Below, one piece after another: positions 1,993 through 27,294 of a DNA stretch of 32,000 bases. The translations under genes were made by a program, and so were the position numbers. The first letter of the stretch is position 1, and each line of letters begins with the position of its first letter. Under the pieces are notes generated by a model, which was not told the origin of the DNA, ran no database searches, and saw only the letters and a program-made list of their open reading frames with translations. The stretch is from Flavobacteriaceae bacterium (GTDB taxonomy: Bacteria > Bacteroidota > Bacteroidia > Flavobacteriales > Flavobacteriaceae). The DNA lies in NCBI GenBank assembly GCA_965224465.1, contig OZ245049.1, forward strand, positions 3,090,001 to 3,122,000, written 5' to 3'.

Positions 1993-2691
1993 ATGAGCGA
2001 TGAAGAGATTCGTTTAGCAAAAGAGTTTGATGAGTTAGAGAAAGAAAGAACTCCGAGAGAGTTTCCTGCTGATTCTAATGTGTATCACTTCCACCCTATT
2101 GCATTTGTGGAACAGATGAAGTTATTAATTACAAAAGAAGATATAGATCTTAGGCCTTTGATGACTTTTGAACCACAAAGAGGTTCTTCAGATTGTAATA
2201 TTACTTGTAAGCGAATAATGAAGAAAATGGGAGTTATTGCCGAAGGAGCAACAGGGGAAATTTCTATTTTCGGAGGATCTTATCGTCAGTCAAAATATCA
2301 ATTAGCTAATGAAACGGCTTCCCGTGATAGTTTAATTTTTTATGAAGAACCTAGTATAAAAGGTGTTGCATACTTGGATAGAGCTCTTGAGTATGGTCAT
2401 CCTGTTTTGGTAGGTGTTCATCATACTTTTCAGTACAGAGGAGGTAAAGGTATAAATGAAGGAACTACAGATCATTATGTTATTATTGTAGGAAGGAAGT
2501 ATGTAGGTGGAAAACAATTTTATATTTTTTGGGATGTAGGAACAAGAAGAGGAAATAGTACTGAATGGGTTTTTGAATACAGAGAAGGGAAATTAATAGC
2601 AGATAAAACGTATAAATCTGGAAATAAAAGTTATACTTTAATACAAATTAGAAGAAACATTGACGAAAATGGAAAAACACTTACTTACTAG
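1993..2691 (+). CDS. Orphan toxin module 2: junction motif followed by a papain-like Cys/His hydrolase (probable peptidoglycan amidase)
   Basis: The track start at 1978 is TTG; the first ATG is at 1993. Motif NVYHFHPIAFVEQMKLL at 2086-2118. Candidate catalytic residues are SSDCNITC (Cys), TTDHYVIIVG (His) and FWDVG (Asp). The family assignment is tentative. Confidence 0.6.
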   Translation: MSDEEIRLAKEFDELEKERTPREFPADSNVYHFHPIAFVEQMKLLITKEDIDLRPLMTFEPQRGSSDCNITCKRIMKKMGVIAEGATGEISIFGGSYRQSKYQLANETASRDSLIFYEEPSIKGVAYLDRALEYGHPVLVGVHHTFQYRGGKGINEGTTDHYVIIVGRKYVGGKQFYIFWDVGTRRGNSTEWVFEYREGKLIADKTYKSGNKSYTLIQIRRNIDENGKTLTY

Positions 2692-3358
2692 TATAGTTAT
2701 TATTTTGCTAATACTAGGCTCTTGTAGAGAGAAAGCAAATAAAGGTTCTTTAGATGAAATTAGTAAAAAAAAAGACTCTGTATTGGTAAATGATTTACCT
2801 GCATTAAGTTTAAATCTAGAAAACAATGAGGTAATAACTTTAAAAGGGAAGAAGTTTTATTTATTAAAAGAAAAACCGGATAAAGAGTTGTTTTTAAATA
2901 AAAATTATTTTGAGAGTGAAATGGAAGTTTATACTTTTAAAGCTAATAAGTTTAAAGATAGAACGGGTAGTGCTATAATGGAGCCTCTAGAGTACGATGT
3001 ATTAAAAGAAATCAATAGTGGTCAGTATATTAATTTAGTAATTGAAAATTGGAATAATGAAAAGAGAAAGATACGGTTTGAATATAATCCAACTAAAGGT
3101 TTGTTATATAAAATAAAAAATAATAAAAGAACAATGACATTCTTAGATTCTCTCAAAATAAATTCTTTTAAGATAGTGTATATGGTGCCTTGCGGCGAAT
3201 ACACTGATGAATATGAGAAGAAAGATTGTTTAGAAGAATATATTAAAACTGAAGAAGAGAGAAGGGTACGGGCTAATGATTTTAAATGGTATCCACGTTT
3301 AGATTGTGCTAATATTTTTGATAGTGAATTTTGTAAAAAACTAAATAAGATTAACTAA
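2669..3358 (+). CDS. Lipoprotein, putative immunity protein of orphan toxin 2
   Basis: ATG at 2669 gives MEKHLLTSIVIILLILGSCRE (lipobox LGSC). It overlaps the toxin 3' end by 23 nt. Confidence 0.6.
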   Translation: MEKHLLTSIVIILLILGSCREKANKGSLDEISKKKDSVLVNDLPALSLNLENNEVITLKGKKFYLLKEKPDKELFLNKNYFESEMEVYTFKANKFKDRTGSAIMEPLEYDVLKEINSGQYINLVIENWNNEKRKIRFEYNPTKGLLYKIKNNKRTMTFLDSLKINSFKIVYMVPCGEYTDEYEKKDCLEEYIKTEEERRVRANDFKWYPRLDCANIFDSEFCKKLNKIN

Positions 3359-3369: not shown

Positions 3370-4917
3370 TTGATAATTTTTCATAAGAATAATAGCAAAA
3401 GTAAAAAACCCTACACAGCACCCATAAAAGAAGAAGATAAAACAAAAACGAGTAGCACCAAAAGACCTTCTATGTTGCCAGAAGGTACAGTGGTAGAAGA
3501 AATACCACAAAAAGATGTTGTACCTTTAGACAATAAAACAACAGCAGCTAAACCAGATGCTAAACCAACGGAAGATAGTATACAAACGACAAGTACAACC
3601 GCTGCTCCAGCACCGGAAACTAAAGTAGAAGAAAAAGAAGTGCCACGAAAACGTATGTTTCCAAGTACAGATATAGTACATCACTTTCATCCAATTGCTT
3701 GGGTGGAGCAGATGAAACTTATTTTTGGGGAGGGTGGCGGAGATTGTGAATCTCTTATTTGGGGAAATAAAGTAAGTTGTGAATTTAGAGAAAAAGTAAT
3801 TAAAATAGCAATCAATTTATGGGGAGAAGATAAGAAAATTGAAATGGCTAATAATTTAATGGCGGTATTTGCTTGGGAAAGTGGAGGTACTTTTAAATCA
3901 GATGCTCCAAACATGGGGAACTCTGGAGGAACAGGTTTAATTCAATTTATGCCTGAAACTGCAAAAGGTTTATTAAATAAAGAGATTACTATTGAGACTG
4001 TCAAGAATTATTGGGGTAAAGGAAAAAATTTAAAACGAGTAAAAGAATTTGCACAAATGACAGATATAGAACAGTTGTCATATGTTGAGAAGTACTTTAA
4101 AAGGTTAAAAGGGAAAGAATTAAAGTTTGTCGATTTTTATTTACAAGTACTATTCCCTGCATCTATGGGTAAATCTGATGACCATGTTGTATTCTCCAAA
4201 GATGGTAGTGGACTATCAAAAACAGATAGACATTATAATTTACGTATAAAAGCATATTCTCAAAATAAAGGGTTTGACACAAATGAAAAATATGGAAATA
4301 ATGATGGACAAGTAACCAAAGGGGAAATAAAGAAAAGTATTCAAAAATATCTTAATGATGGAAAAAAATATAAAAATAACTGTAATGATGGAAGTTGTAC
4401 ATTGGGAAGTGAGAAAAATAATAATATCATTGAAAATGGAGTAATTCTTAATTTTATAGGAAAATCATCAAAAGAATCATCTTTGTCTATTAAAACAAAA
4501 AATATTTTAAAGGAGGTTGGTAAAATTTCTGGAAATGAGAATATAATTATTACTAGTACGGCTAGAACTCCTTATGATCAAGCTAGAATAATGTATAACA
4601 ATTGTAAAGCTGGTCTACAAGAACAAAGAAATACTTATAAATCACCAGGGCAAAAAGTTATTGACGTATATGTTGAGGAGACCAAAAATAAAAAAACTAG
4701 AACTGAAATAATTTCTGCAATGGAAAAAAAGATAAAATCTTTAGGTGCTTCTTCTGTTTCTAGCCATTGTGCAGACCAAAGTATAATAAATACATTTGAT
4801 ATCTCTTATGCTAATTTAAAGGACAAAACAAAATTTTGGAATGAAATGAAAAAAAGAGTTGAACTAGATAAAATTTTAAACGAAAATAAATGTTACCATA
4901 TTCAAATAAAACAATGA
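3370..4917 (+). CDS. Orphan toxin module 3: effector linker plus junction motif plus SLT/GH23 lytic transglycosylase plus a second peptidase-like domain
   Basis: The track start at 3370 is TTG; the first ATG is at 3472. Residues 11-115 are nearly identical to residues ~735-839 of the 1202-aa effector. SLT signature: AVFAWESGG...GGTGLIQFMPETAKGL. The C-terminal part (IIITSTARTPYDQARIMY ... SSHCAD...FDIS ... CYHIQI) is reminiscent of LAS/M15 zinc peptidases, with low certainty. Confidence 0.7.
   Translation: MIIFHKNNSKSKKPYTAPIKEEDKTKTSSTKRPSMLPEGTVVEEIPQKDVVPLDNKTTAAKPDAKPTEDSIQTTSTTAAPAPETKVEEKEVPRKRMFPSTDIVHHFHPIAWVEQMKLIFGEGGGDCESLIWGNKVSCEFREKVIKIAINLWGEDKKIEMANNLMAVFAWESGGTFKSDAPNMGNSGGTGLIQFMPETAKGLLNKEITIETVKNYWGKGKNLKRVKEFAQMTDIEQLSYVEKYFKRLKGKELKFVDFYLQVLFPASMGKSDDHVVFSKDGSGLSKTDRHYNLRIKAYSQNKGFDTNEKYGNNDGQVTKGEIKKSIQKYLNDGKKYKNNCNDGSCTLGSEKNNNIIENGVILNFIGKSSKESSLSIKTKNILKEVGKISGNENIIITSTARTPYDQARIMYNNCKAGLQEQRNTYKSPGQKVIDVYVEETKNKKTRTEIISAMEKKIKSLGASSVSSHCADQSIINTFDISYANLKDKTKFWNEMKKRVELDKILNENKCYHIQIKQ
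3399..3715 (+). repeat. 317-bp homology tract shared with 11575-11891
   Basis: Constant offset of 8176 nt, no indels, about 9 substitutions by eye (~97%). It covers the P/T/K linker through the Met of VEQM, and similarity collapses immediately downstream. Confidence 0.9.
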
Positions 4918-5714
4918 AAAACAAATATTTAATAATATTTTTTTTGATTACATTAATAATTTCTTGTAAAGAAATAGAGAACCCAAAAATAACAACAAAT
5001 ATAAATAAGATAAAAGATACAATTAGAATCAACTGTAAAGAATGTATTATTGATCTTAAGTTTAATAATAAAAAGTTAAATAAATTAAAAGAAAAATATT
5101 CTAATGATGATTTTTATATTATAGCTGATGATGCAAACAATTATACATCTAATGTAAGAGACTTCTTAGGTCAAGAGAAAAAAGAAATTATTAAAATAAA
5201 AATGAATTCTAATAATGTTTTAAAAATTAATAATAGATTTATTATTCCCTATGAAAAAATTAATTATTGGGATTATATTTTATGTTTAAATAGTACAAAA
5301 CCAAAAATTGTCAGCCCAATTGAATTTATAGATGTTTATCAGACGTACTATATTGACAAAATCAAATCAATTAAACCTAATTGGATAGGGAGTTTTAATT
5401 TTTTTAATGACTTAGGCAAAATTGGAGATTCTGGAATTTTTATTGGATATAATATTAATATTTCAAAAGATAGTATTTTGTTTTCTGGGCAAGGTTATCA
5501 AACTAATTTTTATGATTTGTGTTACGCCAAGCAAAATAAAGATACCTTAGAATTATATTACAAAAAAACAATTGAAGGAACAGATTATAATAAAAAAGAG
5601 AAAAAAGCATTATTTAAACTATATATTAAAAACAGCAATTATTATGGTAAAAGTCCTGTAATATTTATTGAATCTATTAATAACACTCCTTTTCAATTAG
5701 AAAAAAATGATTAA
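4914..5714 (+). CDS. Lipoprotein, putative immunity protein of orphan toxin 3
   Basis: ATG at 4914 gives MKNKYLIIFFLITLIISCKE (lipobox ISC). There is an ATGA start/stop overlap with the toxin ORF. Confidence 0.6.
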   Translation: MKNKYLIIFFLITLIISCKEIENPKITTNINKIKDTIRINCKECIIDLKFNNKKLNKLKEKYSNDDFYIIADDANNYTSNVRDFLGQEKKEIIKIKMNSNNVLKINNRFIIPYEKINYWDYILCLNSTKPKIVSPIEFIDVYQTYYIDKIKSIKPNWIGSFNFFNDLGKIGDSGIFIGYNINISKDSILFSGQGYQTNFYDLCYAKQNKDTLELYYKKTIEGTDYNKKEKKALFKLYIKNSNYYGKSPVIFIESINNTPFQLEKND

Positions 5715-5717: not shown

Positions 5718-7291
5718 ACTCAAGTTTCGCACTTAGATAGATTTACGCAACCTCTTGATAGTTAAGCTTGTGGATATTCACTAGGAATCCAAAATCTTCA
5801 ATATTCGCTATTATTTTACGTGTAACCATTTCAACATCAATAGATTCAATCATCTTTTCCAAAATGTCAATCACCAAGCTGATAACTGCTAATATCCTGA
5901 TGTTTAGCTTATTCTCTATATAATCTTGTTTTAAATCTTTAAACAAGCCTCCTATAGTTTCGTAGGCTTCCATTCTATATCGAATACTGGTGAGTAAATA
6001 TTGAACCATTATAATGCTTATTTGTGCGATTTGAATATCGAAATTAGTAGACTGACATTTTCCAAGACCAAACAACTGCTTAGCTTCTTTAAAAAACACT
6101 TCTATGGACCATCTGATACTGTATATTTCAATAGCCTTTACAAATTTCAGTGTTGTATCCGTTGATATTAACGTGTGCCATTTGCCATTCTTTCCACGTT
6201 TTGAAATAAATACAGCAACCTTAAGACCATCAATTTCAGTTATGTAATGATGGTAGTAATAATTGAATTTACGGCATCGTTTTGGTTTTATTTTCTGTTT
6301 TTTGAGTTGTGACAACGTTTTTATCTTTGATCGAACTTCAATCTTACTGTTGTATTTATACATCCCAATAATATGAGTTGAACTACTAATGTTCCGTAGC
6401 TTTCTAAGTAATTTAACACTTGTAAACCAGGTGTCTATTAAGATGTAATCTATGGGGATTTTACGTTTTACAAGCCTTGAGAACATTTGAACTAGCAGGT
6501 CTGTTTTCTTTTTATTGAGTTCCTGATACCTCTTTGCTGCAATTGTTTTACTACATCTTGGAGTTTTCTTTTGAAGCCTACGTTGCTTCGCCGTTAGACC
6601 GTATTTTAATTTTGATGTTTTACTTTCACGATGCAAACTAAAGTCAACAGGGATAAATACACTTCCATTCCAATAACCAGCTACAAGTAGCTTAAAGCCT
6701 AGGTAATACGTTTTTGACACATGGTTGTATATTTTTGAAACACCTTCAATTGTCTTTCCTGTTTTAGAAAGATCAGTATCGTCAAAGATCAAGCACTTTG
6801 TAGCGTCTTGAGATGGAGTAAAGAACTCTTCTTTTAATAGATATTGCTTCACAAACTGAGCTAGAAAAACCCTCCAATTTATCTTTTGATTTGCTAGGAT
6901 TCGATAGTATGAATCTTTACCCGACTGACCTAATCCCTTGTCTTTACTACTTGTAAGTCCATGAATAGAATCAAATCCGATAATAGGTAAAATTAAAAGT
7001 GTAGAGATTAAATTACCGAATGAAATCCCCGATTTCTTACACCAACTAAACTTGTTTTTAATTTTATTGAATCCTAAAATATTTAGATGTGCTTGTAGGT
7101 ATTCTGAACTAAGCCAAATCTTATTAAATTTTCCTTTTATCTCCTGTGTTTTTGTGATATCTTCGTGTTCTAGCATGTTTTGTACTTTCTTGTTCGTACT
7201 TAAAAGTACAATAAAACCAGGGGATTACCTTGGTTTTCATGCTATTTATTTTTACTTAAACACCTGTAAATGATGGGTGCGAAACTTGAGT
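5718..7291 (-). mobile_element. Complete IS4-family insertion sequence (1574 bp)
   Basis: Perfect 15-bp terminal inverted repeats: ACTCAAGTTTCGCAC at 5718-5732 and its reverse complement GTGCGAAACTTGAGT at 7277-7291. They enclose a single DDE transposase ORF. No flanking direct repeat is seen. Confidence 0.85.
5743..7176 (-). CDS. IS4-family DDE transposase (477 aa)
   Basis: Long ORF with the IS4-type C-terminal Y-x2-R-x3-E-x6-K block (YSIRWSIEVFFKEAKQ). It is bracketed by the IRs. Confidence 0.9.
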   Translation of the reverse strand: MLEHEDITKTQEIKGKFNKIWLSSEYLQAHLNILGFNKIKNKFSWCKKSGISFGNLISTLLILPIIGFDSIHGLTSSKDKGLGQSGKDSYYRILANQKINWRVFLAQFVKQYLLKEEFFTPSQDATKCLIFDDTDLSKTGKTIEGVSKIYNHVSKTYYLGFKLLVAGYWNGSVFIPVDFSLHRESKTSKLKYGLTAKQRRLQKKTPRCSKTIAAKRYQELNKKKTDLLVQMFSRLVKRKIPIDYILIDTWFTSVKLLRKLRNISSSTHIIGMYKYNSKIEVRSKIKTLSQLKKQKIKPKRCRKFNYYYHHYITEIDGLKVAVFISKRGKNGKWHTLISTDTTLKFVKAIEIYSIRWSIEVFFKEAKQLFGLGKCQSTNFDIQIAQISIIMVQYLLTSIRYRMEAYETIGGLFKDLKQDYIENKLNIRILAVISLVIDILEKMIESIDVEMVTRKIIANIEDFGFLVNIHKLNYQEVA

Positions 7292-7555
7292 AAACTTATA
7301 TCATTGAAGGATTCTCTTGAAGATATACTTTCAAGCCATTCACTTAATATTGATGATGAAATTATTTCAACTATTAGTTCATTGTGCATTGAAATTAGAT
7401 TGATGATTAACGAGTTTCGATTTAATTCTACTCATGAAGAATTAACTGGAGAAAAAGAAGGGATTTCTGGAGCTAATCGGCTAGATAAAATTTATGATAT
7501 GATTATGGATTTACTAAGATTACTTGAGCATGAAAATGGTATTAAAAGAGAATAA
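7277..7555 (+). CDS. Hypothetical 92-codon ORF, possibly the 3' remnant of a gene cut by the IS4 insertion
   Basis: The GTG 'start' lies inside the IS4 inverted repeat and the first in-frame ATG is well downstream. An identical copy is at 17355-17633. No domain recognised. Confidence 0.3.
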   Translation: MRNLSKLISLKDSLEDILSSHSLNIDDEIISTISSLCIEIRLMINEFRFNSTHEELTGEKEGISGANRLDKIYDMIMDLLRLLEHENGIKRE

Positions 7556-7703
7556 AGCAAAGCTGCTAACAATAAATATAGGTCATTTGGCAGGTAATGC
7601 AAATTTTGAAAATGAGTACAATTAATATAATATATAGCGTTTGGATAGGTTGGAGCTTTGAAATGCCAAACGCCCCATATTCAAGCCGTTGGCAAACATT
7701 AAA

Positions 7704-8324
7704 ATGAAGACTGTACTATACATATTAATTACTCTAATTTCGACTGTCTCGTATGGCCAAATCAGTGGAAAAGATAGCGACAGAGCGCATCTGCTAATTG
7801 ATAATTTTCGAAACCATATTGATTCGACTAACCAGTTGACTAATGGAGCTAAGATTTTCTATATCAGCGACTCCTTATTTAAAGGAACGATATTGACTTT
7901 GAAAAATGGCGACAAACTTGAACTTGACTTGAGATACAAAGACAATTTTCGTGGCTATACAGAATTAGGTGTTGACTTTGAGAATTATGTACTTATAAAG
8001 AATCGTGGAGACGGGTCAGGAAACCCTGAACGACTCCGGGTAATCAACAAAAAAACAGGTGAAGACAAGTGGCTTGGAAACTATCCATTCTATCTTGACA
8101 AGGAAAATGAAATCGGTGTTTACAAATCATATACAGATTCGTTCTCACAAATTATAGTTCATGACTTCTCGACCAACAAAACAGAAATTTATCCGACTCC
8201 TGCCACTAAATGTATCTGCTGTGGTTGTTATGAAATTGTCCAATTCGACAATGATGGTTTCACAATAAAATTTGTTGACCCCGATGACAATGAGACAGAA
8301 CTGAAAATGAAAAGAAAAAAATAA
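7704..8324 (+). CDS. Secreted hypothetical protein (206 aa) with a C-terminal CICCGC cysteine cluster
   Basis: ATG at 7704 gives MKTVLYILITLISTVSYGQ (signal peptide). An identical copy is at 19639-20259, upstream of the second PAAR gene. Confidence 0.6.
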   Translation: MKTVLYILITLISTVSYGQISGKDSDRAHLLIDNFRNHIDSTNQLTNGAKIFYISDSLFKGTILTLKNGDKLELDLRYKDNFRGYTELGVDFENYVLIKNRGDGSGNPERLRVINKKTGEDKWLGNYPFYLDKENEIGVYKSYTDSFSQIIVHDFSTNKTEIYPTPATKCICCGCYEIVQFDNDGFTIKFVDPDDNETELKMKRKK

Positions 8325-8486
8325 CGAAATGCCAATAACTAAGTGTTCGTGCGATACCTAGCGCCCAGCATGAACATCCTGTTGACTGTATCGTTTCAAA
8401 AGATGATACTATGAGGTTGGCGCAATTAATTAAGAGGCTATCAACAAAGACCTTAATAAGATACTACCTGTTTTAGTGCATTTACT

Positions 8487-8516
8487 CCCACGCTCTTTTG
8501 TGGGGATAGTTTTTTA
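8487..8516 (+). terminator. Weak candidate intrinsic terminator
   Basis: CCCAC (8487-8491) / GTGGG (8500-8504) stem followed by GATAGTTTTTT. The stem is only 5 bp and lies ~165 nt after the upstream stop. Confidence 0.3.
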
Positions 8517-8726
8517 CTGTTTTTTGATACTGATTATTGTTGGTTAGTAGCGTTTAGGCATGCGCTTTCTATTACGTGGCTACGTTTATTTTTTAACAAC
8601 GCTAGAACGTAAAACAACCTATTTATATCGGTTATAAGATAAAGGTCAAATCGGTACGGTAATTAGATGAATAAAAATACAGGGAAATATAATCGGAAAA
8701 CCACTACTGCATATAACTATTTTTTG

Positions 8727-8734
8727 TACATTTG
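8727..8734 (+). promoter_or_regulatory. Candidate Bacteroidota -7 promoter element (TAnnTTTG) upstream of the PAAR gene
   Basis: TACATTTG at 8727-8734. The paralogous position 20662-20669 reads TACTTTTG, so the consensus is kept although neighbouring bases differ. No clear -33 TTTG partner. Confidence 0.25.
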
Positions 8735-8900
8735 AAGACTGCTTATACATATATACGTCTGAATAATTAAAATAACCCAATGCTACATCGTAGGTTAAAT
8801 GGATATGCCATCTTGTTTAGCACTGCTACTGTGAGAATATGGGATTATAAGTAATTTAACGCACTCAAGCGGTAGAACATTACATAAAAAACAAAAAATT

Positions 8901-9362
8901 ATGCCAGGACCAGCAGCAACAATATCACACATGCACACATGCCCTATGTATAGTGGAACAAGCCCACATACTGGTGGCCCCATTATAGGCCCGGGAGTGC
9001 CAACAGTTTTAATAGGAGGAAAACCTGCCGCAGTAATGGGGGATCAATGTACCTGTTCGGGACCACCCGATGTAATTGTAGAAGGTGTTTCTACCGTATT
9101 AATTGGCGGGAGACCTGCAGCTACTATGGGATCAAAAACAGGTCATGGAGGCGAAGTAAGCATTGGAAATCCTACCGTACTTATTGGTACAAGATGTAGT
9201 GCTCCTACCGCAATAATGCCAGTGCATAAAATACCTTTTCCTAAAATCACTCTAATTAATAGAATATTAGGGAATACAAGGCAAGCGCAAGAAAACCAAG
9301 AAAAAATAAAAGAAGAAGCTAAGAAACATGGATATCTTAGTGATTTTAATTTAAGTATCTAA
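8901..9362 (+). CDS. PAAR-domain protein with a ~55-aa C-terminal tail
   Basis: Gly/Pro-rich beta-repeat with literal PAA motifs (GGKPAAVMGD, GGRPAATMGS), conserved H/C residues (HMHTCPM, CTCSG) and repeated TVLIGG strands. GC is markedly higher than in the flanks. Confidence 0.9.
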   Translation: MPGPAATISHMHTCPMYSGTSPHTGGPIIGPGVPTVLIGGKPAAVMGDQCTCSGPPDVIVEGVSTVLIGGRPAATMGSKTGHGGEVSIGNPTVLIGTRCSAPTAIMPVHKIPFPKITLINRILGNTRQAQENQEKIKEEAKKHGYLSDFNLSI

Positions 9363-9373
9363 AATAAAAATCT

Positions 9374-12300
9374 ATGAGAGTAAGTTATCCGCTAAAAGAT
9401 ATTAGTACTGATGCCGAAGCAAAAAATTATTTGGGGAATCGTAACCTTTTTGGAAAATACCCTATTGGAGCGCATAATGCTTGGCATGGTGGTATACATT
9501 TAGAAGGTGCAAGTAGAGAAATACAATGCATTGCGCAAGGTCGTATAATTGCCTACCGCTTTGCAGAAGGGTATAAAAAAACGATAATAAACAATTCGGA
9601 TCACTTATACTCTAATGGGTTTATACTCATACAACACGATTATAAAAGTAAAGAAAAACAAAAAATGACCTTTTATAGTTTGTATCATCATTTAATGCCT
9701 AAAGATGAGATAACTACTAATAAGTTTAGTTTACCTGATTTTGTAAGTAAAAAAAAACATGTAGTAACTAGAGGTTTAGGAATTCTTAATCTAGGTTTAA
9801 GAGGGAGGAAGCTTAAAGATAATGTAATAAACTGGAAAGATAAAGATACTATAGTTGTTGTAATACCTAAAGGAGAGCTTGTACAAGCTATGCTAGACGA
9901 AAATAGCAAGGAAATAAGAAAAGGAAACTGGTTAAAAGTAAGCTATACAGATAAAAACAATAAAAAATATGAAAATATTTACTTAAGTACAAAATATGGT
10001 ACAAAATATAAAGTAAAGCAAATAGGTACTACCACTACTTACGAAATAATCACTACCGAAGATCCAGATAATAGTATATTAGGTGCAATAGTAAGAACAG
10101 AAGCAATTAATAGTTCTGAAATTGTAAAAGTCATTGAGAACGGTTTCCCTATAAAAATAGATGACTCTTATAAAAACAAAGGTTGGATAAAATTAGCAGA
10201 CAATACTGGCTATATTTTAGAAAGCAGTTTAGATAAAAAAAAAGTACTTGCTAAAAACGTTAAGTTAAATACAATTACAGCTTGTGATATACCAATAAAA
10301 GCAGGTGTAACCATTGGTTATACAGGTAGCCTAGGTTTTAAAGGGTACAAAGGATATAAAGCAACCCACTTAGAAGTATTTACAACAGATGATGTTTTTG
10401 AGTTTTTAAGTAATGAAAAAAAAGATGGAAAAGAAGAACAATATTTTACAAATATTATAGCAGGCACAACATTAAAAACAAGCCTATTTTACAAAGTAGA
10501 TATTAAAGCAAATACCCCTATAAAAGTACTTAAAATTGAAGGAGATTATGCACAAATAAAAGTAACATCTATTACTGCAACCTTAGTTAGAGATACCGAT
10601 ATTAATGATAACGTAAAACCATTTAATAGCAATAAACTTTATACTATCAAAAATCTTACTACGGTTAATAAAGCATTTAATGGTCTTGCAACTAAAGATG
10701 CCACATTCAATACAAAACAAGTAAAAGCACCAAGAAATTGGAGAACAAATTTAAACAGAACTGTTACCTTTTACCCAAATGGCTATGGTAAAGTGTTTTG
10801 GATAGAAAAAACATTTATTTCCAAAATAACAGAAAAAACCAAAAAAAAAGCAGGTATATTTGTCTCAATTACTCCTGACTATTTTTTAACAGAAGAACAA
10901 AAATACGATACAGTTGAAAGAGAAGCCAAAACAGGAGAAAAAACTACATTATATGTAGATGTATGTAAGGCATATATCGAAGTCCCTTTTAGAACCGATG
11001 TAGAAGAAGTAACTGTAGAAAAAGAAAAAGTAGTTGACTTACGTAAATTTAAAAAAGCAAAAGACGATAAAAAAGACCTTTGGTATAAAGTAGTATTAGA
11101 TGATACAACTAGTAGCCAATGTGTCGCAGTAAAAGGCTGGGTAAAAGAAAAGGATCTTGACAAATTTAGCGCTTACGATTGGCAAAAATTTGGTTTTAAA
11201 GATCTAGACGCAGGTAATGAATACATATACTCTGTAAAAGACTTATGTAAGGCAGAAGACAGTGCCGCTTTTGTAACCGAAATTTGGGATAAAACAATAG
11301 ATACAGATGGCAATAAAGTATTAGATATACTAGAGCTTATTAGAGCGTTTAGTAAACCAGAAATAGCACAAAAACTATCTCGTTTGGTATGTAAGCACAA
11401 AAATGAATGGTCTTATACTATGGACGAAATAAAACCAGAAGTAAAAGAACTCTATGATTTTGGTATACAATTAGAAGAAGTTACAGCCGAAAAACAAAAA
11501 CTAGAAACCGAAAGGGATGATAGTTTAGCCAAAATGGAAACCAAAATAGAAAATTTAATGTGGTGGGATGAGGCAAGTAAAAAAACCTACACAGCACCCA
11601 TAAAAGAAGAAGATAAAACAAAAACGAGTAGCACCAAAAGACCTTCTATGTTGCCAGAAGGTACAGTGGTAGAAGAAATACCACAAAAAGATGTTGTACC
11701 TTTAGACAATAAAACAACAGCAGTTAAACCAGATGCTAAACCAACGAAAGATAGTATACCAACGACAAGTACAACCGCTGCTCCAGCACCAGAAACTAAA
11801 GTAGAAGAAAAAGAAGTGCCACCAAAACGTATGTTTCCAAGTACCAATATAGTACATCACTTTCATCCAATTGCTTGGGTGGAGCAGATGAGGAGGGTTT
11901 TTGGAGATAATGGTATTTGTGTTTGTGAAGCTAGAGTTAGGGCTTTTCTGAGACTTATTAAAGAATTTGAAGGAGTTCCAGGCGAAAAAGGATATACTAC
12001 ATTGTTTAATCATAAAAGTTTTTCAGATATGTCTACACATCCAGAAAAACCTATTCTTTGGTATAAAAACAAAAAAACAGGAAAAAATGTGTATAGTACT
12101 GCTGCAGGTGCATATCAAATAATGAAAGAAACTTGGTGGGATTATAATGGAGATGTAGTAAAAGACCATAAAAAAGTAGGTAGAAACGAGAATAGAAACT
12201 TCGTTAAAAAATATGGAATAAAGGATTTTTCAGCTAAATCTCAAGATAAATTTTGTATAGCATTACTAATACATGGATATAAAGCAAAAAATCAATTGAA

Positions 12301-12982
12301 TTATTTATTAAATGGTTTTGTAACCAGAGCGATAGAAGAATGTGCATCACACACTTGGGCTAGTTTTACTCCTGGTAGATATCCAAAACAAGGGCCAACA
12401 AAGGGACTTACAAATAAGAAAAAAATAAAAGACGCTATACATAACGCTAGAGTAAAGCAATGGGAAGCCTATGATAAATTTCTTACTGAAGAGCTAGCTG
12501 GACAATCTGATTTACATTTAGAACCTGGATTTTTAAAAAAGTTTGGAATTAAAGAGCCTGAACCAAAGGAGCTAATAGAAAACAAAAAAGAAGGGCTTGA
12601 TTTAAATAAAGCAATTGAAAGATTAAATAAAAGAGCTGGTGACATGACTACTTCAGTATGGAAATGTGCTAAATATGTTAGATGGGCTTTAGAAGCTGGG
12701 GGAATGAAAACATGGGGTGCTGCTAAAATAGATCAACGCCCAAATTCGGCAAAAGATTATGGCCCGTTTTTATTAAACAAAGGTTTTAAAGAAGTTCCTA
12801 AGGGTAATTATCAAAAAGGAGATATATCAGTTATTCAAAATTTAAGTGCGGCAAAACCTCATGGGCACATAGCTATGTGGAATGGTGAAAATTGGGTATC
12901 AGATTTTGTTCAAAAAACTCTTTACCCAGGAGATGGGTATAGAAATGCACAACCAAATTATAAAATTTACAGATGGGAATAA
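9374..12982 (+). CDS. Large polymorphic effector: split M23/LytM-like N-domain, SH3-like inserts, P/T/K linker, HHFHPIAWVEQM junction, GH104 (lambda R-like) muramidase, Tae4/NlpC-P60-like amidase
   Basis: Starts 11 nt after the PAAR stop. M23-like blocks: WHGGIHLEG, GRIIAYRF, GFILIQH, FYSLYHHL, then ~190 aa later IKAGVTIGYTGSLG...ATHLEVF. The C-terminal region is colinear with phage lambda R: RVRAFLRLIKEFEG / FSDMSTHPEK / STAAGAYQIM..TWWDY / KDFSAKSQD / HTWASF. The last ~135 aa carry KCAKYVRWAL (Cys) ... KGDISVI ... HGHIAMWNGENWVSDF (His), as in Tae4-type amidases. Confidence 0.85.
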   Translation: MRVSYPLKDISTDAEAKNYLGNRNLFGKYPIGAHNAWHGGIHLEGASREIQCIAQGRIIAYRFAEGYKKTIINNSDHLYSNGFILIQHDYKSKEKQKMTFYSLYHHLMPKDEITTNKFSLPDFVSKKKHVVTRGLGILNLGLRGRKLKDNVINWKDKDTIVVVIPKGELVQAMLDENSKEIRKGNWLKVSYTDKNNKKYENIYLSTKYGTKYKVKQIGTTTTYEIITTEDPDNSILGAIVRTEAINSSEIVKVIENGFPIKIDDSYKNKGWIKLADNTGYILESSLDKKKVLAKNVKLNTITACDIPIKAGVTIGYTGSLGFKGYKGYKATHLEVFTTDDVFEFLSNEKKDGKEEQYFTNIIAGTTLKTSLFYKVDIKANTPIKVLKIEGDYAQIKVTSITATLVRDTDINDNVKPFNSNKLYTIKNLTTVNKAFNGLATKDATFNTKQVKAPRNWRTNLNRTVTFYPNGYGKVFWIEKTFISKITEKTKKKAGIFVSITPDYFLTEEQKYDTVEREAKTGEKTTLYVDVCKAYIEVPFRTDVEEVTVEKEKVVDLRKFKKAKDDKKDLWYKVVLDDTTSSQCVAVKGWVKEKDLDKFSAYDWQKFGFKDLDAGNEYIYSVKDLCKAEDSAAFVTEIWDKTIDTDGNKVLDILELIRAFSKPEIAQKLSRLVCKHKNEWSYTMDEIKPEVKELYDFGIQLEEVTAEKQKLETERDDSLAKMETKIENLMWWDEASKKTYTAPIKEEDKTKTSSTKRPSMLPEGTVVEEIPQKDVVPLDNKTTAVKPDAKPTKDSIPTTSTTAAPAPETKVEEKEVPPKRMFPSTNIVHHFHPIAWVEQMRRVFGDNGICVCEARVRAFLRLIKEFEGVPGEKGYTTLFNHKSFSDMSTHPEKPILWYKNKKTGKNVYSTAAGAYQIMKETWWDYNGDVVKDHKKVGRNENRNFVKKYGIKDFSAKSQDKFCIALLIHGYKAKNQLNYLLNGFVTRAIEECASHTWASFTPGRYPKQGPTKGLTNKKKIKDAIHNARVKQWEAYDKFLTEELAGQSDLHLEPGFLKKFGIKEPEPKELIENKKEGLDLNKAIERLNKRAGDMTTSVWKCAKYVRWALEAGGMKTWGAAKIDQRPNSAKDYGPFLLNKGFKEVPKGNYQKGDISVIQNLSAAKPHGHIAMWNGENWVSDFVQKTLYPGDGYRNAQPNYKIYRWE
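11575..11891 (+). repeat. 317-bp homology tract shared with 3399-3715
   Basis: See the partner feature at 3399-3715. Confidence 0.9.
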
Positions 12983-13842
12983 ATAAAATATTTAAACTTT
13001 TAGTTGTATTTGCTTTTTTTAGTTCTTTCTTATCATGCAAAGAAAGTCCTAAAAAAAACAATGATGTTGTAGTAAATAATACATCGTCATCACTTAATGT
13101 AGGAAAAAAGAATAATCCCCAAACAAAAATAGAGTCTAAAGATTTTATTCTTGAATTTTACACAAAATATATTAAATATTTAGAAGATCCTTTAAATGAA
13201 GAATCAATAGATTATGAATTTTATTTAACGGAAGATTTGATTGATGAAATTGGAAAAACAGAAGGTTATGATTACATTATAAAAGCCCAAGATTCAACTG
13301 TAGAATGGTTGAAATCTTTAAAAGTAGAGGATACTGAGAAAAATAACGTTTACAGTATTACTCGTGAAAAAGGTTATTATGATAGTGATGATAATACAAT
13401 TTATGCCACTGTTATAGAACTAAAAAATGAAAAATTAAAAATATCAAAGTTAAGTAGTACTTTAATAGATCAACCTATTTCTACTCCAGTAGAAAACGAA
13501 GATCAGAAAGGTAAGTTTACTTATTACTCTTTTGATTATAAAATAAATCCTGGAGATCGCATTAATGAGACAAGTTATATTATAGAATATTTAGAAGAAG
13601 AACATATTGTTTTTTCAATGATGGGATATGATGGAGAGTTTGACTATAAATGTAGACAGGTAAGGACAAAAGAAGGTGTTTCACTTTATTATATAGAAGC
13701 TACTGATGATGATGAATATACAGGAAATAAAAGTAAACCACTCGCTAGAATATATAAAAAAGGTGAAGATTTTTATGCTAAAAGTTCACTTATAGAAGAT
13801 GGTAAAGAAATTAAGCTAAAAGAAGTTGAAAGTAGATACTAA
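12973..13842 (+). CDS. Lipoprotein, putative immunity protein for the full-length effector
   Basis: MGINKIFKLLVVFAFFSSFLSCKES (lipobox LSC). It overlaps the effector stop by 10 nt, and its position is analogous to the three orphan-linked lipoproteins. Confidence 0.65.
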   Translation: MGINKIFKLLVVFAFFSSFLSCKESPKKNNDVVVNNTSSSLNVGKKNNPQTKIESKDFILEFYTKYIKYLEDPLNEESIDYEFYLTEDLIDEIGKTEGYDYIIKAQDSTVEWLKSLKVEDTEKNNVYSITREKGYYDSDDNTIYATVIELKNEKLKISKLSSTLIDQPISTPVENEDQKGKFTYYSFDYKINPGDRINETSYIIEYLEEEHIVFSMMGYDGEFDYKCRQVRTKEGVSLYYIEATDDDEYTGNKSKPLARIYKKGEDFYAKSSLIEDGKEIKLKEVESRY

Positions 13843-13963
13843 AAATCAATTGTGTACATCTTACAATTTAGTGCAGTTTAAATATATACAAACCACAGTT
13901 TAAAAGTATCCGTCCGACCATCCCCATATTTTTTAGCAGAAAAATAGCTCCTATTTTTGACGC

Positions 13964-14272
13964 ATGAGAAAAAACGAAGAAAAACGAGCCTATATGACAG
14001 CTGTTGTTTCCGATTGGAAGTTGAGTGATTTAACCTTGGAAGATTATTGTAAAAGTCATAAAATTACACTTTGTAAATTTAGGTACTGGAATAAGAAATT
14101 GACCTCCAAAAAAGCCAGTGGATTTTCAAAGGTTGAACTTATTGATGCTCCTATTGAAAACAGCAGAAATTCTATTTTAGATAGTTTTAAAATCGAGTAT
14201 CCAACAGGTGTAAATTTGGTCATTAACAAAGAGATTACACTTGTCGATTTACAAAATTTAATTCATTTGTAA
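13964..14272 (+). CDS. tnpA: IS66 accessory protein TnpA (Orf1)
   Basis: Small first ORF of the IS66 triplet, 102 aa, directly upstream of the tnpB-like ORF. Confidence 0.75.
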   Translation: MRKNEEKRAYMTAVVSDWKLSDLTLEDYCKSHKITLCKFRYWNKKLTSKKASGFSKVELIDAPIENSRNSILDSFKIEYPTGVNLVINKEITLVDLQNLIHL

Positions 14273-14273
14273 T

Positions 14274-14615
14274 ATGCTAAATCTTTCAAGTGAACTTGAT
14301 TTTCATCTGTACCTAGAACCCACAGATATGCGTAAAGGATTTAATGGTTTGTCAGGTGTTATCCGTAATAATTTAGAAGAGGATCCTAGTAATGGAGCTG
14401 TTTTTATCTTCATAAATAAACCTCGAAACAAAATAAAACTATTGCATTGGCAAGCAGGTGGATTTGTACTGTATTATAAACGATTGGAACGAGGTACTTT
14501 TGAACTCCCGGTGTATGATAATCTGAAAGGAAGTATACAAATGAAATACAGCCAAATGGTGATGCTTCTTGATGGACTGTCTATCAAAAACATCCAACAA
14601 AGGAAACGTTATTAA
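14274..14615 (+). CDS. tnpB: IS66 Orf2 protein TnpB
   Basis: DMRKGFNGLSGVI...GAVFIFINKPRNKIKLLHWQAGGFVLYYKRLERGTFELP matches the conserved IS66 Orf2 pattern. Confidence 0.9.
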   Translation: MLNLSSELDFHLYLEPTDMRKGFNGLSGVIRNNLEEDPSNGAVFIFINKPRNKIKLLHWQAGGFVLYYKRLERGTFELPVYDNLKGSIQMKYSQMVMLLDGLSIKNIQQRKRY

Positions 14616-14683
14616 TGTCTTTTTACAGGTAAAAAACCTAATAAAACCAGGCTGTTCATGTATATTTTTCGTATATTTAATGT

Positions 14684-16327
14684 ATGGAAAAAGACTTAGA
14701 ACAGCTATCAAAAAAAGCACTTATAGCCCTATTACAGGAGGCTAATTCTAAGTCAGATTTACTTATCAAAAAGACAAGTTCTCTTAGTGCAAAAAATGAG
14801 TTACTTACTATAAAGACAAAAGACGTTACTTTACAAAAGGCTATCCTAGAAGCTCAATATAAAGAATTAGAGACAAAATACGGATATGGACAATTTCAAT
14901 TAGAGCAATTACGTCGTATGATTTTTGGGACAAAACGTGAGCGTTTTATAATGGCTAATAACCCTTTTCAAATGCAACTCCCTTTCGAAGTTTTAAAAGA
15001 GATGCCCCAGGAAGAAGAAGCTCCTGTAAACATTACATATCAACGTAAAAAGACTAAAAAAAGAACGATTGGAAGTTTAAATCTCCCCAGTCATTTACCT
15101 GTTGAAATTATTAATTTAGAGCCTAAAGAGACTATAGAGAACCGAATAAAAATAGGTGAAGAAATTACAGATAAATTAGAACTTGTACCCACAAAGCTAT
15201 ACATAAAACGATATGTCAGACCAAAATACGCCTTAAAAAAGAAAGTACAAGACACATTGATTGACAATGGAAACCCTTTAGGTATTAAGACCGTTATTAT
15301 GGCTGATTTACCAAGTTTTGCTATTGAAAAATCTGTAGCATCAAACAGCCTGCTAGCACAGCTATTGATTGATAAATTCTTAGATCACTTACCGTATTAT
15401 CGACAGATAGAACGTTTTAAACGAGAAGGAATCTCTATAAGTTCATCTACAATAAATGGATGGCAAAACAGCTTAGGACACTTACTTAAGCCGCTGTATC
15501 AGGCTATGAAAAACACGGTGCTGTCACAAGGATATGTACAGGCCGATGAATCAACTATTCCGGTGCTAGACAAACAGAAAAAAGGAAAAACTCATACTGG
15601 ATATCATTGGGTGTACTATTCACCCATACAAAAAATGGTATTGTTTGATTATCGTCACTCTAGATCTAAACATGGACCTAGAGAAATGCTTAAAAACTTT
15701 AAAGGGTATTTACAAACAGATGGCTACGCTGTATATGATGAATTTGCACTTAAAAAAGATGTCACTTTAGTAGGGTGTATGGCACATGCACGTCGTTATT
15801 TTGAGAAAGCACTAGACTATGACAAAGTAAAAGCGAGTCATGCGATGGTACTCATTCAACAATTATATGCCATTGAACGACATTGTAAAAACCAGGAATT
15901 TACTCCTGAGCAACGGCATGCTTATCGCCTAGATAAAGCACAACCAATAATGGATACATTTATAAAATGGTTGATCCATAATACCCAAGGAAGCTTACCT
16001 AAAAGTTCCTTAGGAAAAGCAATCACTTATACATTAAAACGATGGGACTACTTAAAAGCCTACCTGTATGACGGTACTTTAGAACTAGATAATAACCTGG
16101 TAGAAGGATCTATCAGAACATTAGCTATTGGACGTAAAAATTATTTATTTGCAGGTAGCCATGATGCTGCAAAAAATGCTGCCATGTTCTACTCCTTTTT
16201 TGGGACTTGTAAAAAACACCAAGTAAACCCCTATAAATGGATGAAAAAAGTACTGGATATAATCCCTGATTACAATGCTCGAAAGCTAAATGAGCTATTT
16301 CCACAAAATTTAAACCTCGATCAATAA
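14684..16327 (+). CDS. tnpC: IS66-family transposase TnpC
   Basis: 547 aa with an N-terminal coiled coil, DHLPYYRQIERFKREGI, and a DDE-type core (HWVYYSP..., LQTDGYAVYD, GCMAHARRYF). Confidence 0.9.
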   Translation: MEKDLEQLSKKALIALLQEANSKSDLLIKKTSSLSAKNELLTIKTKDVTLQKAILEAQYKELETKYGYGQFQLEQLRRMIFGTKRERFIMANNPFQMQLPFEVLKEMPQEEEAPVNITYQRKKTKKRTIGSLNLPSHLPVEIINLEPKETIENRIKIGEEITDKLELVPTKLYIKRYVRPKYALKKKVQDTLIDNGNPLGIKTVIMADLPSFAIEKSVASNSLLAQLLIDKFLDHLPYYRQIERFKREGISISSSTINGWQNSLGHLLKPLYQAMKNTVLSQGYVQADESTIPVLDKQKKGKTHTGYHWVYYSPIQKMVLFDYRHSRSKHGPREMLKNFKGYLQTDGYAVYDEFALKKDVTLVGCMAHARRYFEKALDYDKVKASHAMVLIQQLYAIERHCKNQEFTPEQRHAYRLDKAQPIMDTFIKWLIHNTQGSLPKSSLGKAITYTLKRWDYLKAYLYDGTLELDNNLVEGSIRTLAIGRKNYLFAGSHDAAKNAAMFYSFFGTCKKHQVNPYKWMKKVLDIIPDYNARKLNELFPQNLNLDQ

Positions 16328-16345
16328 AATCGAGGATTTTTTATG
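16315..16345 (+). terminator. Intrinsic terminator at the end of IS66 tnpC
   Basis: Perfect 7-bp stem CCTCGAT (16315-16321) / ATCGAGG (16329-16335), 7-nt loop, followed by ATTTTTTAT. Confidence 0.55.
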
Positions 16346-16383
16346 TATTTTTAATTCCTATACGTACTTCGTCGGACGGATAC

Positions 16384-17254
16384 GTTGTGACAACGTTTTT
16401 ATCTTTGATCGAACTTCAATCTTACTGTTGTATTTATACATCCCAATAATATGAGTTGAACTACTAATGTTCCGTAGCTTTCTAAGTAATTTAACACTTG
16501 TAAACCAGGTGTCTATTAAGATGTAATCTATGGGGATTTTACGTTTTACAAGCCTTGAGAACATTTGAACTAGCAGGTCTGTTTTCTTTTTATTGAGTTC
16601 CTGATACCTCTTTGCTGCAATTGTTTTACTACATCTTGGAGTTTTCTTTTGAAGCCTACGTTGCTTCGCCGTTAGACCGTATTTTAATTTTGATGTTTTA
16701 CTTTCACGATGCAAACTAAAGTCAACAGGGATAAATACACTTCCATTCCAATAACCAGCTACAAGTAGCTTAAAGCCTAGGTAATACGTTTTTGACACAT
16801 GGTTGTATATTTTTGAAACACCTTCAATTGTCTTTCCTGTTTTAGAAAGATCAGTATCGTCAAAGATCAAGCACTTTGTAGCGTCTTGAGATGGAGTAAA
16901 GAACTCTTCTTTTAATAGATATTGCTTCACAAACTGAGCTAGAAAAACCCTCCAATTTATCTTTTGATTTGCTAGGATTCGATAGTATGAATCTTTACCC
17001 GACTGACCTAATCCCTTGTCTTTACTACTTGTAAGTCCATGAATAGAATCAAATCCGATAATAGGTAAAATTAAAAGTGTAGAGATTAAATTACCGAATG
17101 AAATCCCCGATTTCTTACACCAACTAAACTTGTTTTTAATTTTATTGAATCCTAAAATATTTAGATGTGCTTGTAGGTATTCTGAACTAAGCCAAATCTT
17201 ATTAAATTTTCCTTTTATCTCCTGTGTTTTTGTGATATCTTCGTGTTCTAGCAT
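16384..17254 (-). pseudogene. IS4-family transposase lacking its C-terminal ~190 codons
   Basis: The translation is identical to the first ~290 aa of the 477-aa copy. The track ORF then reads through into IS66 terminal sequence (..LSQRIRPTKYV). Confidence 0.85.
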
Positions 17255-17369
17255 GTTTTGTACTTTCTTGTTCGTACTTAAAAGTACAATAAAACCAGGG
17301 GATTACCTTGGTTTTCATGCTATTTATTTTTACTTAAACACCTGTAAATGATGGGTGCGAAACTTGAGT
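16384..17369 (-). mobile_element. Truncated second IS4-family copy (transposase-start-proximal 986 bp only)
   Basis: Identical by eye to 6306-7291 (offset 10078). It starts abruptly at the IS66 right end and retains the IR at 17355-17369. Confidence 0.85.
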
Positions 17370-17633
17370 AAACTTATATCATTGAAGGATTCTCTTGAAG
17401 ATATACTTTCAAGCCATTCACTTAATATTGATGATGAAATTATTTCAACTATTAGTTCATTGTGCATTGAAATTAGATTGATGATTAACGAGTTTCGATT
17501 TAATTCTACTCATGAAGAATTAACTGGAGAAAAAGAAGGGATTTCTGGAGCTAATCGGCTAGATAAAATTTATGATATGATTATGGATTTACTAAGATTA
17601 CTTGAGCATGAAAATGGTATTAAAAGAGAATAA
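17355..17633 (+). CDS. Duplicate of the hypothetical 92-codon ORF
   Basis: The translation is identical to 7277-7555. Confidence 0.3.
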   Translation: MRNLSKLISLKDSLEDILSSHSLNIDDEIISTISSLCIEIRLMINEFRFNSTHEELTGEKEGISGANRLDKIYDMIMDLLRLLEHENGIKRE

Positions 17634-17646
17634 AGCAAAGCTGCTA

Positions 17647-19503: not shown

Positions 19504-19638
19504 ACAATAAATATAGGTCATTTGGCAGGTAATGCAAATTTTGAAAATGAGTACAATTAATATAATATATAGCGTTTGGATAGGTTGGAGCTTTGAAATG
19601 CCAAACGCCCCATATTCAAGCCGTTGGCAAACATTAAA

Positions 19639-20259
19639 ATGAAGACTGTACTATACATATTAATTACTCTAATTTCGACTGTCTCGTATGGCCAAATCAG
19701 TGGAAAAGATAGCGACAGAGCGCATCTGCTAATTGATAATTTTCGAAACCATATTGATTCGACTAACCAGTTGACTAATGGAGCTAAGATTTTCTATATC
19801 AGCGACTCCTTATTTAAAGGAACGATATTGACTTTGAAAAATGGCGACAAACTTGAACTTGACTTGAGATACAAAGACAATTTTCGTGGCTATACAGAAT
19901 TAGGTGTTGACTTTGAGAATTATGTACTTATAAAGAATCGTGGAGACGGGTCAGGAAACCCTGAACGACTCCGGGTAATCAACAAAAAAACAGGTGAAGA
20001 CAAGTGGCTTGGAAACTATCCATTCTATCTTGACAAGGAAAATGAAATCGGTGTTTACAAATCATATACAGATTCGTTCTCACAAATTATAGTTCATGAC
20101 TTCTCGACCAACAAAACAGAAATTTATCCGACTCCTGCCACTAAATGTATCTGCTGTGGTTGTTATGAAATTGTCCAATTCGACAATGATGGTTTCACAA
20201 TAAAATTTGTTGACCCCGATGACAATGAGACAGAACTGAAAATGAAAAGAAAAAAATAA
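19639..20259 (+). CDS. Duplicate of the secreted hypothetical protein
   Basis: The translation is identical to 7704-8324. Confidence 0.6.
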   Translation: MKTVLYILITLISTVSYGQISGKDSDRAHLLIDNFRNHIDSTNQLTNGAKIFYISDSLFKGTILTLKNGDKLELDLRYKDNFRGYTELGVDFENYVLIKNRGDGSGNPERLRVINKKTGEDKWLGNYPFYLDKENEIGVYKSYTDSFSQIIVHDFSTNKTEIYPTPATKCICCGCYEIVQFDNDGFTIKFVDPDDNETELKMKRKK

Positions 20260-20836
20260 CGAAATGCCAATAACTAAGTGTTCGTGCGATACCTAGCGCC
20301 CAGCATGAACATCCTGTTGACTGTATCGTTTCAAAAGATGATACTATGAGGTTGGCGCAATTAATTAAGAGGCTATCAACAAAGACCTTAATAAGATACT
20401 ACCTGTTTTAGTGCATTTACTCCCACGCTCTTTTGTGGGGATAGTTTTTTACTGTTTTTTGATACTGATTATTGTTGGTTAGTAGCGTTTAGGCATGCGC
20501 TTTCTATTACGTGGCTACGTTTATTTTTTAACAACGCTAGAACGTAAAACAACCTATTTATATCGGTTATAAGATAAAGGTCAAATCGGTACGGTAATTA
20601 GATGAATAAAAATACAGGGAAATATAATCTGAAAACCACTACTGCGTATAACTATTTTTTGTACTTTTGATTACTGCTTATAGATATATACGTCTTAATA
20701 ATTAAAATAACCCAATGCTACATCGTAGGTTAAATGGATATGCCTTCTTGTTTAGCACTGCTACTGTGAGAATATGGGATTATAAGTAATTTAACACACT
20801 CAAGCGGTAGAACATTACATAAAAAACAAATAAATT

Positions 20837-21298: not shown

Positions 21299-21309
21299 TT
21301 ATAAATGTT

Positions 21310-27031: not shown

Positions 27032-27176
27032 TTAAGTTTTATAAAAATAATTGATATTTATAAAGATGCTATCTAGGTACTGTGTTTAAACAGCCCTACC
27101 TTAGGACAGGTATTCATAACCAATTACAATCCAAAATGGCAGATATAAATGGGTTATTTTACGTTCTAACGTTGTT

Positions 27177-27225: not shown

Positions 27226-27294
27226 TAACAGAAAAGAAATCCATTTCTAAACCGTCACTTGGAAATGTATTTGGTATAACTTATAAGAAAGTTC

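Follow-up and report, generated by a model that had tools for sequence, protein, structure and literature searches.

A repeated tract shared by an orphan toxin-immunity cassette and a candidate type VI secretion effector in a Flavobacteriaceae genome

In Neisseria, many silent, 5′-truncated pilS cassettes share conserved segments with the expressed pilE gene or genes and can donate variable parts to them. Contact-dependent inhibition loci reportedly carry orphan CdiA-CT/CdiI modules, an observation said to go back to Poole and colleagues in 2011, and the spare 3′ cassettes of the MafB toxins are said to be able to replace the expressed tip by recombination. The Neisseria MafB toxins come with alternative MafB-CT/MafI cassettes (Jamet et al. 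2015, PMC4287609). In Salmonella Typhimurium, 522 bp of the main rhs gene recur in its orphan at 95% identity, and recombination between the two follows a duplication (Koskiniemi et al. 2014, PMC3967940). In Vibrio cholerae's type VI secretion system (T6SS), incoming effector-immunity modules displace older ones and leave arrays behind, and homologous recombination gives rise to mosaic clusters (Kirchberger et al. 2017, PMC5361080). The logic of an orphan cassette with a 5′ homology arm is already well known for Rhs, CdiA and MafB. Here we analyse a locus of a Flavobacteriaceae bacterium (assembly GCA_965224465.1, contig OZ245049.1, positions 3,090,001 to 3,122,000) in which a 317-nucleotide (nt) tract occurs both in an orphan toxin gene and in a full-length effector gene. 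The whole stretch of 32,000 nt that was analysed is called the window, and coordinates are those of the window unless another contig is named.

The repeated tract and its junction motif

The features on which the comparison turns are the following.

3399-3715, + strand: tract copy A, the probable 5′ homology arm of orphan cassette 3, encoding linker and junction motif
11575-11891, + strand: tract copy B, effector codons ~735-839, encoding the linker (predicted disordered) and junction motif
3682-3714 (orphan 3) and 11858-11890 (effector), + strand: junction motif HFHPIAWVEQM
473-505 (orphan 1) and 2086-2118 (orphan 2), + strand: motif variant HFHPIAFVEQM
467-1090 and 1041-1769, + strand: orphan cassette 1, CHAP/Amidase_5 tip and lipoprotein
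1978-2691 and 2660-3358, + strand: orphan cassette 2, tip and lipoprotein
3370-4917, + strand: orphan 3 open reading frame (ORF), its tip (3715-4917) having a lytic-transglycosylase-like domain and a second domain of unknown fold
4914-5714 (ORF opens at 4890), + strand: candidate immunity lipoprotein for tip 3, with a DUF5991 match (E 5e-12) and a lipobox
8901-9362, + strand: PAAR spike-tip protein (PF05488, E 5e-21), immediately 5′ of the effector
9374-12982, + strand: full-length effector of 1202 amino acids (aa), with carrier body, linker, junction motif and GH104-like + Tae4-like tip
12973-13842, + strand: candidate immunity lipoprotein for the effector tip, with a lipobox

In an ungapped comparison the two tract copies are identical at 309 of 317 bases (97.5%) at an offset of 8176 nt, and self-BLAST gives the pair an E-value of 2.5e-153. 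Both lie on the + strand in the same codon phase, and in the 100-200 nt flanking them on each side identity is 27-33%, which is random for DNA of 33% G+C. The offset, the absence of indels and the shared orientation given in the original prediction are borne out by this comparison, as is its near-identity, although the substitutions number 8 and not about 9. It had also placed the end of the tract exactly at a Met codon. That boundary stands, but the tract runs one base past the ATG of HFHPIAWVEQM (3712-3714 and 11888-11890), to the first base of the following codon (3715 and 11891). Beyond the Met the sequences are unrelated as DNA, as had been stated, but the proteins retain a weak [KR][LR][IV]FG; and orphan modules 1 and 2, said to share ~50 bp, share 68 nt at 87%. 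Copy A is, moreover, 98.1% identical to the main effector of the related strain L078.

We think it probable that the tract acts as a 5′ homology arm, through which an orphan toxin-immunity cassette is connected with a full-length polymorphic T6SS effector. The tract would be the 3′ end of the constant carrier part, with the variable peptidoglycan-hydrolase tip beginning directly after the motif, and orphan 3 would be a tip and immunity cassette that has lost its carrier and kept the 5′ tract. We envisage that an incoming tip-immunity cassette recombines into the full-length gene and pushes the old tip downstream, and that the tract so kept may, by the precedent of Salmonella Rhs, serve as the arm for rejoining a spare tip to a carrier. 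Judging from the mosaic polymorphism described below, exchange among the copies in this genome would keep them near-identical.

Identity of this degree might instead come from purifying selection on an important segment of protein, rather than from recombination or recent duplication. Judged by its conservation, the junction motif is a genuine protein motif: it is strongly conserved as protein across Bacteroidota while its synonymous sites vary, its extended form is R.FP....V.HFHPIA[FW]VEQM, and further positions are conserved outside the fixed search pattern (V -2, Y/W -1, F 6, V/I 7, K/R 11 and F-P -8/-7). AlphaFold predicts it, with moderate confidence, as a short strand and helix (predicted local distance difference test, pLDDT, ~75); for the tips, where the alignment is shallow, the model is of low quality (mean pLDDT 51), and it is used here for body, linker and motif only. 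About two-thirds of the tract, however, encodes a low-complexity linker of ~70 codons, whose successive alignment columns show no conservation from one species to another and for which disorder is predicted (pLDDT ~30 and no secondary structure, compared with 53-93 for the preceding body), so that protein constraint does not explain the identity of the tract. Moreover, 6 of the 8 substitutions change the amino acid, synonymous differences are found in only 2 of ~105 codons, and identity falls to random within a few bases on each side. For the linker, selection is largely refuted, and as the source of the tract identity we regard it as very improbable.

The codons at the junction were compared in the window (3700-3717 and 11876-11893) and in 72 copies from loci L001-L075. 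GTG is used at the junction in 36 of 59 cases against a background of 0.14 in the same genes, GAG in 40 of 55 (0.23), CAG in 34 of 42 (0.26) and AAG in 34 of 51 (0.22), and the G-ending bias at V-E-Q-(M)-K holds after de-replication to 29 copies. This run of codons (GTG GAG CAG ATG AAG) suggests conservation at the nucleotide level beyond the protein motif. One could go further and see in the at least 10 tip cassettes under one ~300-nt tract a dedicated variation system resembling the silent cassettes of pilin, in which the junction would be a protein motif and at the same time a nucleotide-level recombination boundary or signal, the G-ending codons being its footprint; we consider this rather unlikely.

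Tract copies in the source genome and in a related strain

Orphan 3 and the window effector are not an exclusive pair: the same 5.24-Mb genome encodes P0001, P0003, P0114, P0115, P0241, P0243, P0100 and P0158, which have the same linker and motif with various tips, so that the window effector is one of at least 9 other genes in this genome with the tract, and the copies number at least 10 with the window's two included. The paralogs were compared as proteins only; exact-match look-ups of the window effector, orphan 3, P0001 and P0003 as proteins gave no result. Several pairs of polymorphic sites occur in all four combinations, e.g. KK[T/P]Y versus AP[I/V]K and TTA[A/V]K versus PT[K/E]D, and an identical tip is found behind different tract variants; the polymorphisms among the copies are reticulate. 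Set against P0001 the effector is a mosaic, with 97% identity over aa 1-100, ~40% over 101-300, ~98% over 301-840 and no relation past the motif. Near-identical carriers with unrelated tips, and a breakpoint at most 2 nt from the ATG, are seen in L078, P0001 and P0003; the L078 main gene is 97.9% identical to window 10796-11893 and then passes into a CHAP tip 2 nt past the ATG.

We also observed that P0003, P0241, P0243 and P0242, encoded outside the window, are long 5′-truncated copies with a common starting point, where 20 identical foreign residues, MSA[RK]NV.RKGLRKKVIY.SLE, join the carrier near its residue 330. This pattern suggests that carrier-tip segments were copied around the source genome by a mobile junction or a repeated unit.

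Cassette 3 itself is present in L078, where it has a different upstream neighbour and occupies the canonical position, directly after a full-length effector and its immunity gene, with only ~82 nt of tract. Tip 3 is 99.5% identical there, and an IS4 insertion sequence (IS) element adjoins its immunity gene as in the window. Between window and L078 the cassette differs at 10 of 2302 nt. Nine of these differences fall in the first 99 nt (3634-3732), on the tract side, and one in the remaining 2203 nt (Fisher p = 3e-12), so that the tract and the first 18 nt of the tip have had a history unlike that of the rest of the cassette. Taken together, these comparisons show that the tract has undergone recombination. 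L078 also bears on the assembly. The region is dense in IS elements and repeats, and the repeated tract might be suspected of being a collapsed or chimeric artefact; but the copies differ at 8 positions, their flanks are unique, and L078, an independent assembly, holds the main gene and orphan 3 with the same tract. An artefact is hardly credible.

A distinct though lesser possibility is that the tract is only a scar, the orphans being debris of displacement by horizontal transfer that was kept for immunity against neighbours, the tract having no further use and the identity reflecting recent origin alone. It would fit this explanation that 6 of the 8 tract substitutions are non-synonymous, that orphan 3 stands in a non-productive position relative to the window effector, that no recombinant was seen and that V. 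cholerae retains old immunity-gene arrays after effector displacement (PMC5361080). The contrast in divergence along cassette 3, the reticulate polymorphism among 10 same-genome copies and the intact toxin ORFs, with the motif, in all orphans show instead that exchange took place once the cassettes had formed.

Under the homology-arm interpretation, tip 3 probably once ended a full-length gene. Its displacement would have taken place separately in two lineages, with the right junctions of the incoming cassettes at window 3399 and ~3634, and in the window strain the orphan array would later have lost its own main gene, an IS end bordering the array at 1-168. By analogy, such a displacement history would match the V. 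cholerae T6SS displacement model (PMC5361080). The geometry of possible exchanges involves four further features.

1-168, + strand: end of an IS30-family element, the left border of the orphan array
5743-7176, - strand: IS4-family transposase (DDE_5 + DDE_Tnp_1 matches), between the orphan array and the PAAR-effector unit
6306-9382, + strand: 3.08-kb direct repeat, left copy, which could serve as the right-hand homology arm in a two-sided replacement
16384-21318, + strand: 3.08-kb direct repeat, right copy, with a group II intron inserted in it and stopping 9 nt into a truncated effector paralog

Several points weigh against this interpretation. Orphan 3 lies upstream of the effector in direct orientation, which is atypical for the family, and the simplest crossover would therefore be destructive and not a tip swap. 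No recombinant of carrier and tip 3 was found, tip 3 being present at ≥90% identity only as an orphan, in the two strains available. The main gene of the orphan array is not in the window, where the IS end at 1-168 stands instead. L078 and a second contig, L079, come from metagenomes and are assumed to originate in one related strain, and the order of events is a reconstruction from two strains and many IS elements.

The original prediction had a single crossover replacing the tip, or else deleting or duplicating the interval. With this geometry a simple crossover would not replace the tip but would cost the PAAR gene and the effector N-terminus. If it took place within one molecule, tip 3 and its immunity gene would be lost together with the IS4 element, PAAR and effector codons 1-734, and a 478-aa orphan with the GH104+Tae4 tip would remain, while the chimeric full-length gene would be lost on the excised circle. 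Unequal sister exchange would duplicate the 8176-bp interval, retain the original gene and both immunity genes, and yield effector(1-839) + tip 3, a chimeric ORF that is in frame and encodes 1239 aa. This route would parallel the duplication followed by recombination in Salmonella rhs. True replacement is possible as well, because the repeat at 6306-9382 and 16384-21318 follows both tips in the same order and orientation and so provides homology on both sides; it would proceed by two-sided conversion, with the tract as left arm and the IS4-containing repeat as right arm. Of the earlier view of the tract as a tip-switching substrate, a homology arm joining orphan cassette to effector and recombination in the past stand; current switching was not observed.

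The effector family, its delivery and its toxins

The junction motif was scanned in one genome per species (GTDB representatives), a set that does not include the source species. The scan gave 75 loci, ~18 of them chance matches, compared with ~13 expected by our own estimate, and the other loci hold 73 family motif copies, nearly all in Bacteroidota. Full-length genes make up 33 of the 73, with a median of 767 codons upstream of the motif, and orphans another 33, with 2-212 codons (median 77); 7 are ambiguous. Wherever a locus holds both kinds (8 of 8), the orphan lies downstream of the main gene on the same strand. Within-genome main and orphan tracts are ungapped, ~100-300 nt long and 86-100% identical, and end 0-13 nt past the ATG; the window tract is thus typical of the family, among the longer of these tracts. 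As a side observation, two betaproteobacterial genomes, of Methylovorus (L006, L035), encode WHFHPIAFIQHMRK after ~480 codons of ORF, which hints that the motif may exist outside Bacteroidota as well.

These counts bear on a further explanation, by which orphan 3 is a small effector expressed in its own right from TTG 3370 or an internal ATG, the motif a loading or recognition signal and the tract plain coding sequence. The orphan 3 ORF is intact, the L078 gene P0031 is called from a Met just before the motif, the motif is a conserved peptide of predicted structure, and orphans are as common as full-length genes. Yet the length upstream of the motif is very variable and some orphans have a stop two codons before it, which fits truncation better than a defined start, and the PAAR-adjacent carrier body is absent from the orphan. 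We judge independent expression unlikely.

Homologues in Aquimarina, Tamlana, Olleya and other Flavobacteriaceae match approximately the first 71% of the effector and then diverge. Bodies align and tips are unrelated directly after HFHPIA[FW]VEQM, which is a polymorphic-toxin architecture. Searching 1.84 billion proteins with the pre-toxin region returned 139 representatives at 50% identity (74 at E ≤1e-10), so that the family, though real, is a small one. In JGI metagenomes an exact 42-nt stretch from the tract had no match, and the degenerate W-variant motif was found on one contig, L080, with another orphan array.

Several tip types are found in both settings. In Aquimarina muelleri the full-length effector P0010 ends in a homologue of tip 2, and full-length P0002 carries a homologue of the first domain of tip 3 (37-46% identical). 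Conversely, A. algicola (L053) and a Cellulophaga genome (L042) have the tip type of the window effector as an orphan, with an immunity homologue beside each, and the P0001 tip type is an orphan in L080. By homology, tips pass from orphan to full-length settings and back, and immunity homologues follow.

Neither VgrG nor a T6SS core gene lies within the window itself. In at least 22 related loci the gene directly upstream of the full-length one encodes PAAR; the A. muelleri locus (L076) has VgrG, PAAR and effector followed by a long same-strand array; and on L079 the effector ortholog (98-99% identical) adjoins TssN, TssO, TssE, TssF, two Hcp genes, VgrG and PAAR. These neighbourhoods tie the family to the Bacteroidota-type T6SS (T6SSiii), and, judging from them, delivery by this system through the adjacent PAAR protein is most likely.

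The GH104+Tae4-like call made earlier for the effector tip is borne out by sequence matches to solved structures: tip residues 32-164 match lambda lysozyme (PDB 1am7, 3d3d; E 5e-7) and residues 240-362 match Tae4 (PDB 4hz9; E 2.4e-24). By similarity the tip is a GH104/lambda lysozyme-like lytic transglycosylase joined to a Tae4 amidase-like domain. The first domain of tip 3 matches a lytic transglycosylase (PDB 9udh, E 3e-16), its SLT match being weak, and tip 1 has the CHAP/Amidase_5 match. A lipoprotein ORF lies 3′ of each of the four tips, and all four encode a lipobox signal peptide, which fits periplasmic immunity against cell-wall enzymes. Homologues of tip 3 and its immunity protein co-occur in L003 and L059, and those of the effector tip and its immunity protein in L043, L053 and L042. 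The downstream lipoproteins are candidate immunity proteins that co-vary with the tips.

In Pfam and NCBIfam, searched with E-values as high as 5, no model covers the carrier body or the junction. Some homologues carry PF01551 (M23) or are named M23, and the window effector has no PF01551 match. Its carrier N-terminus (9374-10400) has invariant WHGG.H and H.E residues, which suggest a diverged M23-like fold with altered metal ligands; such a domain may be catalytic or may serve as an adaptor to PAAR/VgrG.

Neighbouring features and comparison with described systems

The remainder of the locus holds the following features.

13906-16383, + strand: IS66-family element (Pfam IS66 domains; limits from the L078 comparison), 3′ of the effector immunity gene
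17648-19503, - strand: group II intron (Rfam D1-D4 matches), with a reverse transcriptase/maturase ORF at 17911-19008
20837-21298, + strand: second PAAR gene
21310-22008, + strand: stump of an effector paralog, 232 N-terminal aa, cut by an IS30-family element at ~21970-23100

In the 3.08-kb repeat, 6306-7569 equals 16384-17647 at 100% identity and 7569-9382 equals 19504-21318 at 98.2%; the group II intron is inserted precisely in the right copy and absent from the left. Homology ends 9 nt into both effector genes, so that PAAR and the sequence upstream of it form a shared left arm followed by different bodies. The repeat brackets the window's only full-length effector, that effector's immunity gene and the IS66 element, and is a far larger substrate for deletion or duplication than the 317-nt tract. 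A further element, of ~300 nt and intergenic, lies upstream of both PAAR genes (8316-8635 and 20251-20570) and, inverted, at 27119-27280; L078 also has two copies of it, and on L079 it separates the two Hcp genes. Rfam gives no match for this element, which T6SS loci may share as a regulatory or mobile sequence.

In L079 the effector ortholog is interrupted by an IS copy to which the IS30-family end at 1-168 is 99.4% identical; its identity to 22935-23100 is 74%. The L079 copy (10641-11772) shows, where it is inserted, an overlap of 3 bp (10011-10013). Effector genes appear to be frequent targets of IS traffic, an IS30-family element having likewise cut the paralog at 21310. Each of the three orphan ORFs has stop codons a short way upstream, so that none of them, module 1 included, can be the 3′ part of a full-length gene that extends beyond the window.

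Hardly anything has been characterised among the type VI effectors of environmental Bacteroidota, and the locus described here defines a family of polymorphic effectors, adjacent to PAAR, in which the junction motif is clear. A genome with at least 10 cassettes on a common tract would be a handy system for measuring the frequency and route of tip exchange, and searches for new peptidoglycan-targeting toxins, together with their immunity proteins, can make simple use of the motif. Neither 'HFHPIA' nor the effector family was found described in the literature searched, of which coverage was incomplete, so that this is absence of evidence only.

The likeness to pilE/pilS is one of analogy only, there being no sign here of a programmed, high-frequency non-reciprocal mechanism or of a dedicated initiating element. 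V. cholerae differs in that mainly immunity genes are retained, whereas complete toxin tips with a 5′ tract are kept here. The Neisseria MafB system is likewise a polymorphic toxin with spare 3′ cassettes, but its carrier (DUF1020) is unrelated and its secretion route is another. CdiA loci also have tandem tip-immunity arrays 3′ of the main gene, each with a short conserved piece up to a motif, which is VENN there. That system has a different carrier and motif and a type V route; in the window proteins there are no TPS/FHA Pfam matches or features, and no VENN at the junction. Against Salmonella rhs, the window proteins have no RHS or YD match in Pfam or NCBIfam, no YD/Rhs repeats and no DPxGL, the junction being HFHPIA[FW]VEQM after a disordered linker; the PAAR gene is separate and the secretion system of Bacteroidota type; and the orphan lies upstream of the matching gene, with at least 10 tract copies per genome. 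The two loci are alike in pairing a full-length T6SS effector with an orphan toxin-immunity cassette, in the several-hundred-bp tract that ends at the motif where the toxin starts (522 bp at 95% there, 317 bp at 97.5% here) and in having orphan tips on full-length genes in other strains. The logic of the Rhs and CdiA orphan cassettes has arisen here on a different carrier, and the new part would be the carrier family and its junction motif.

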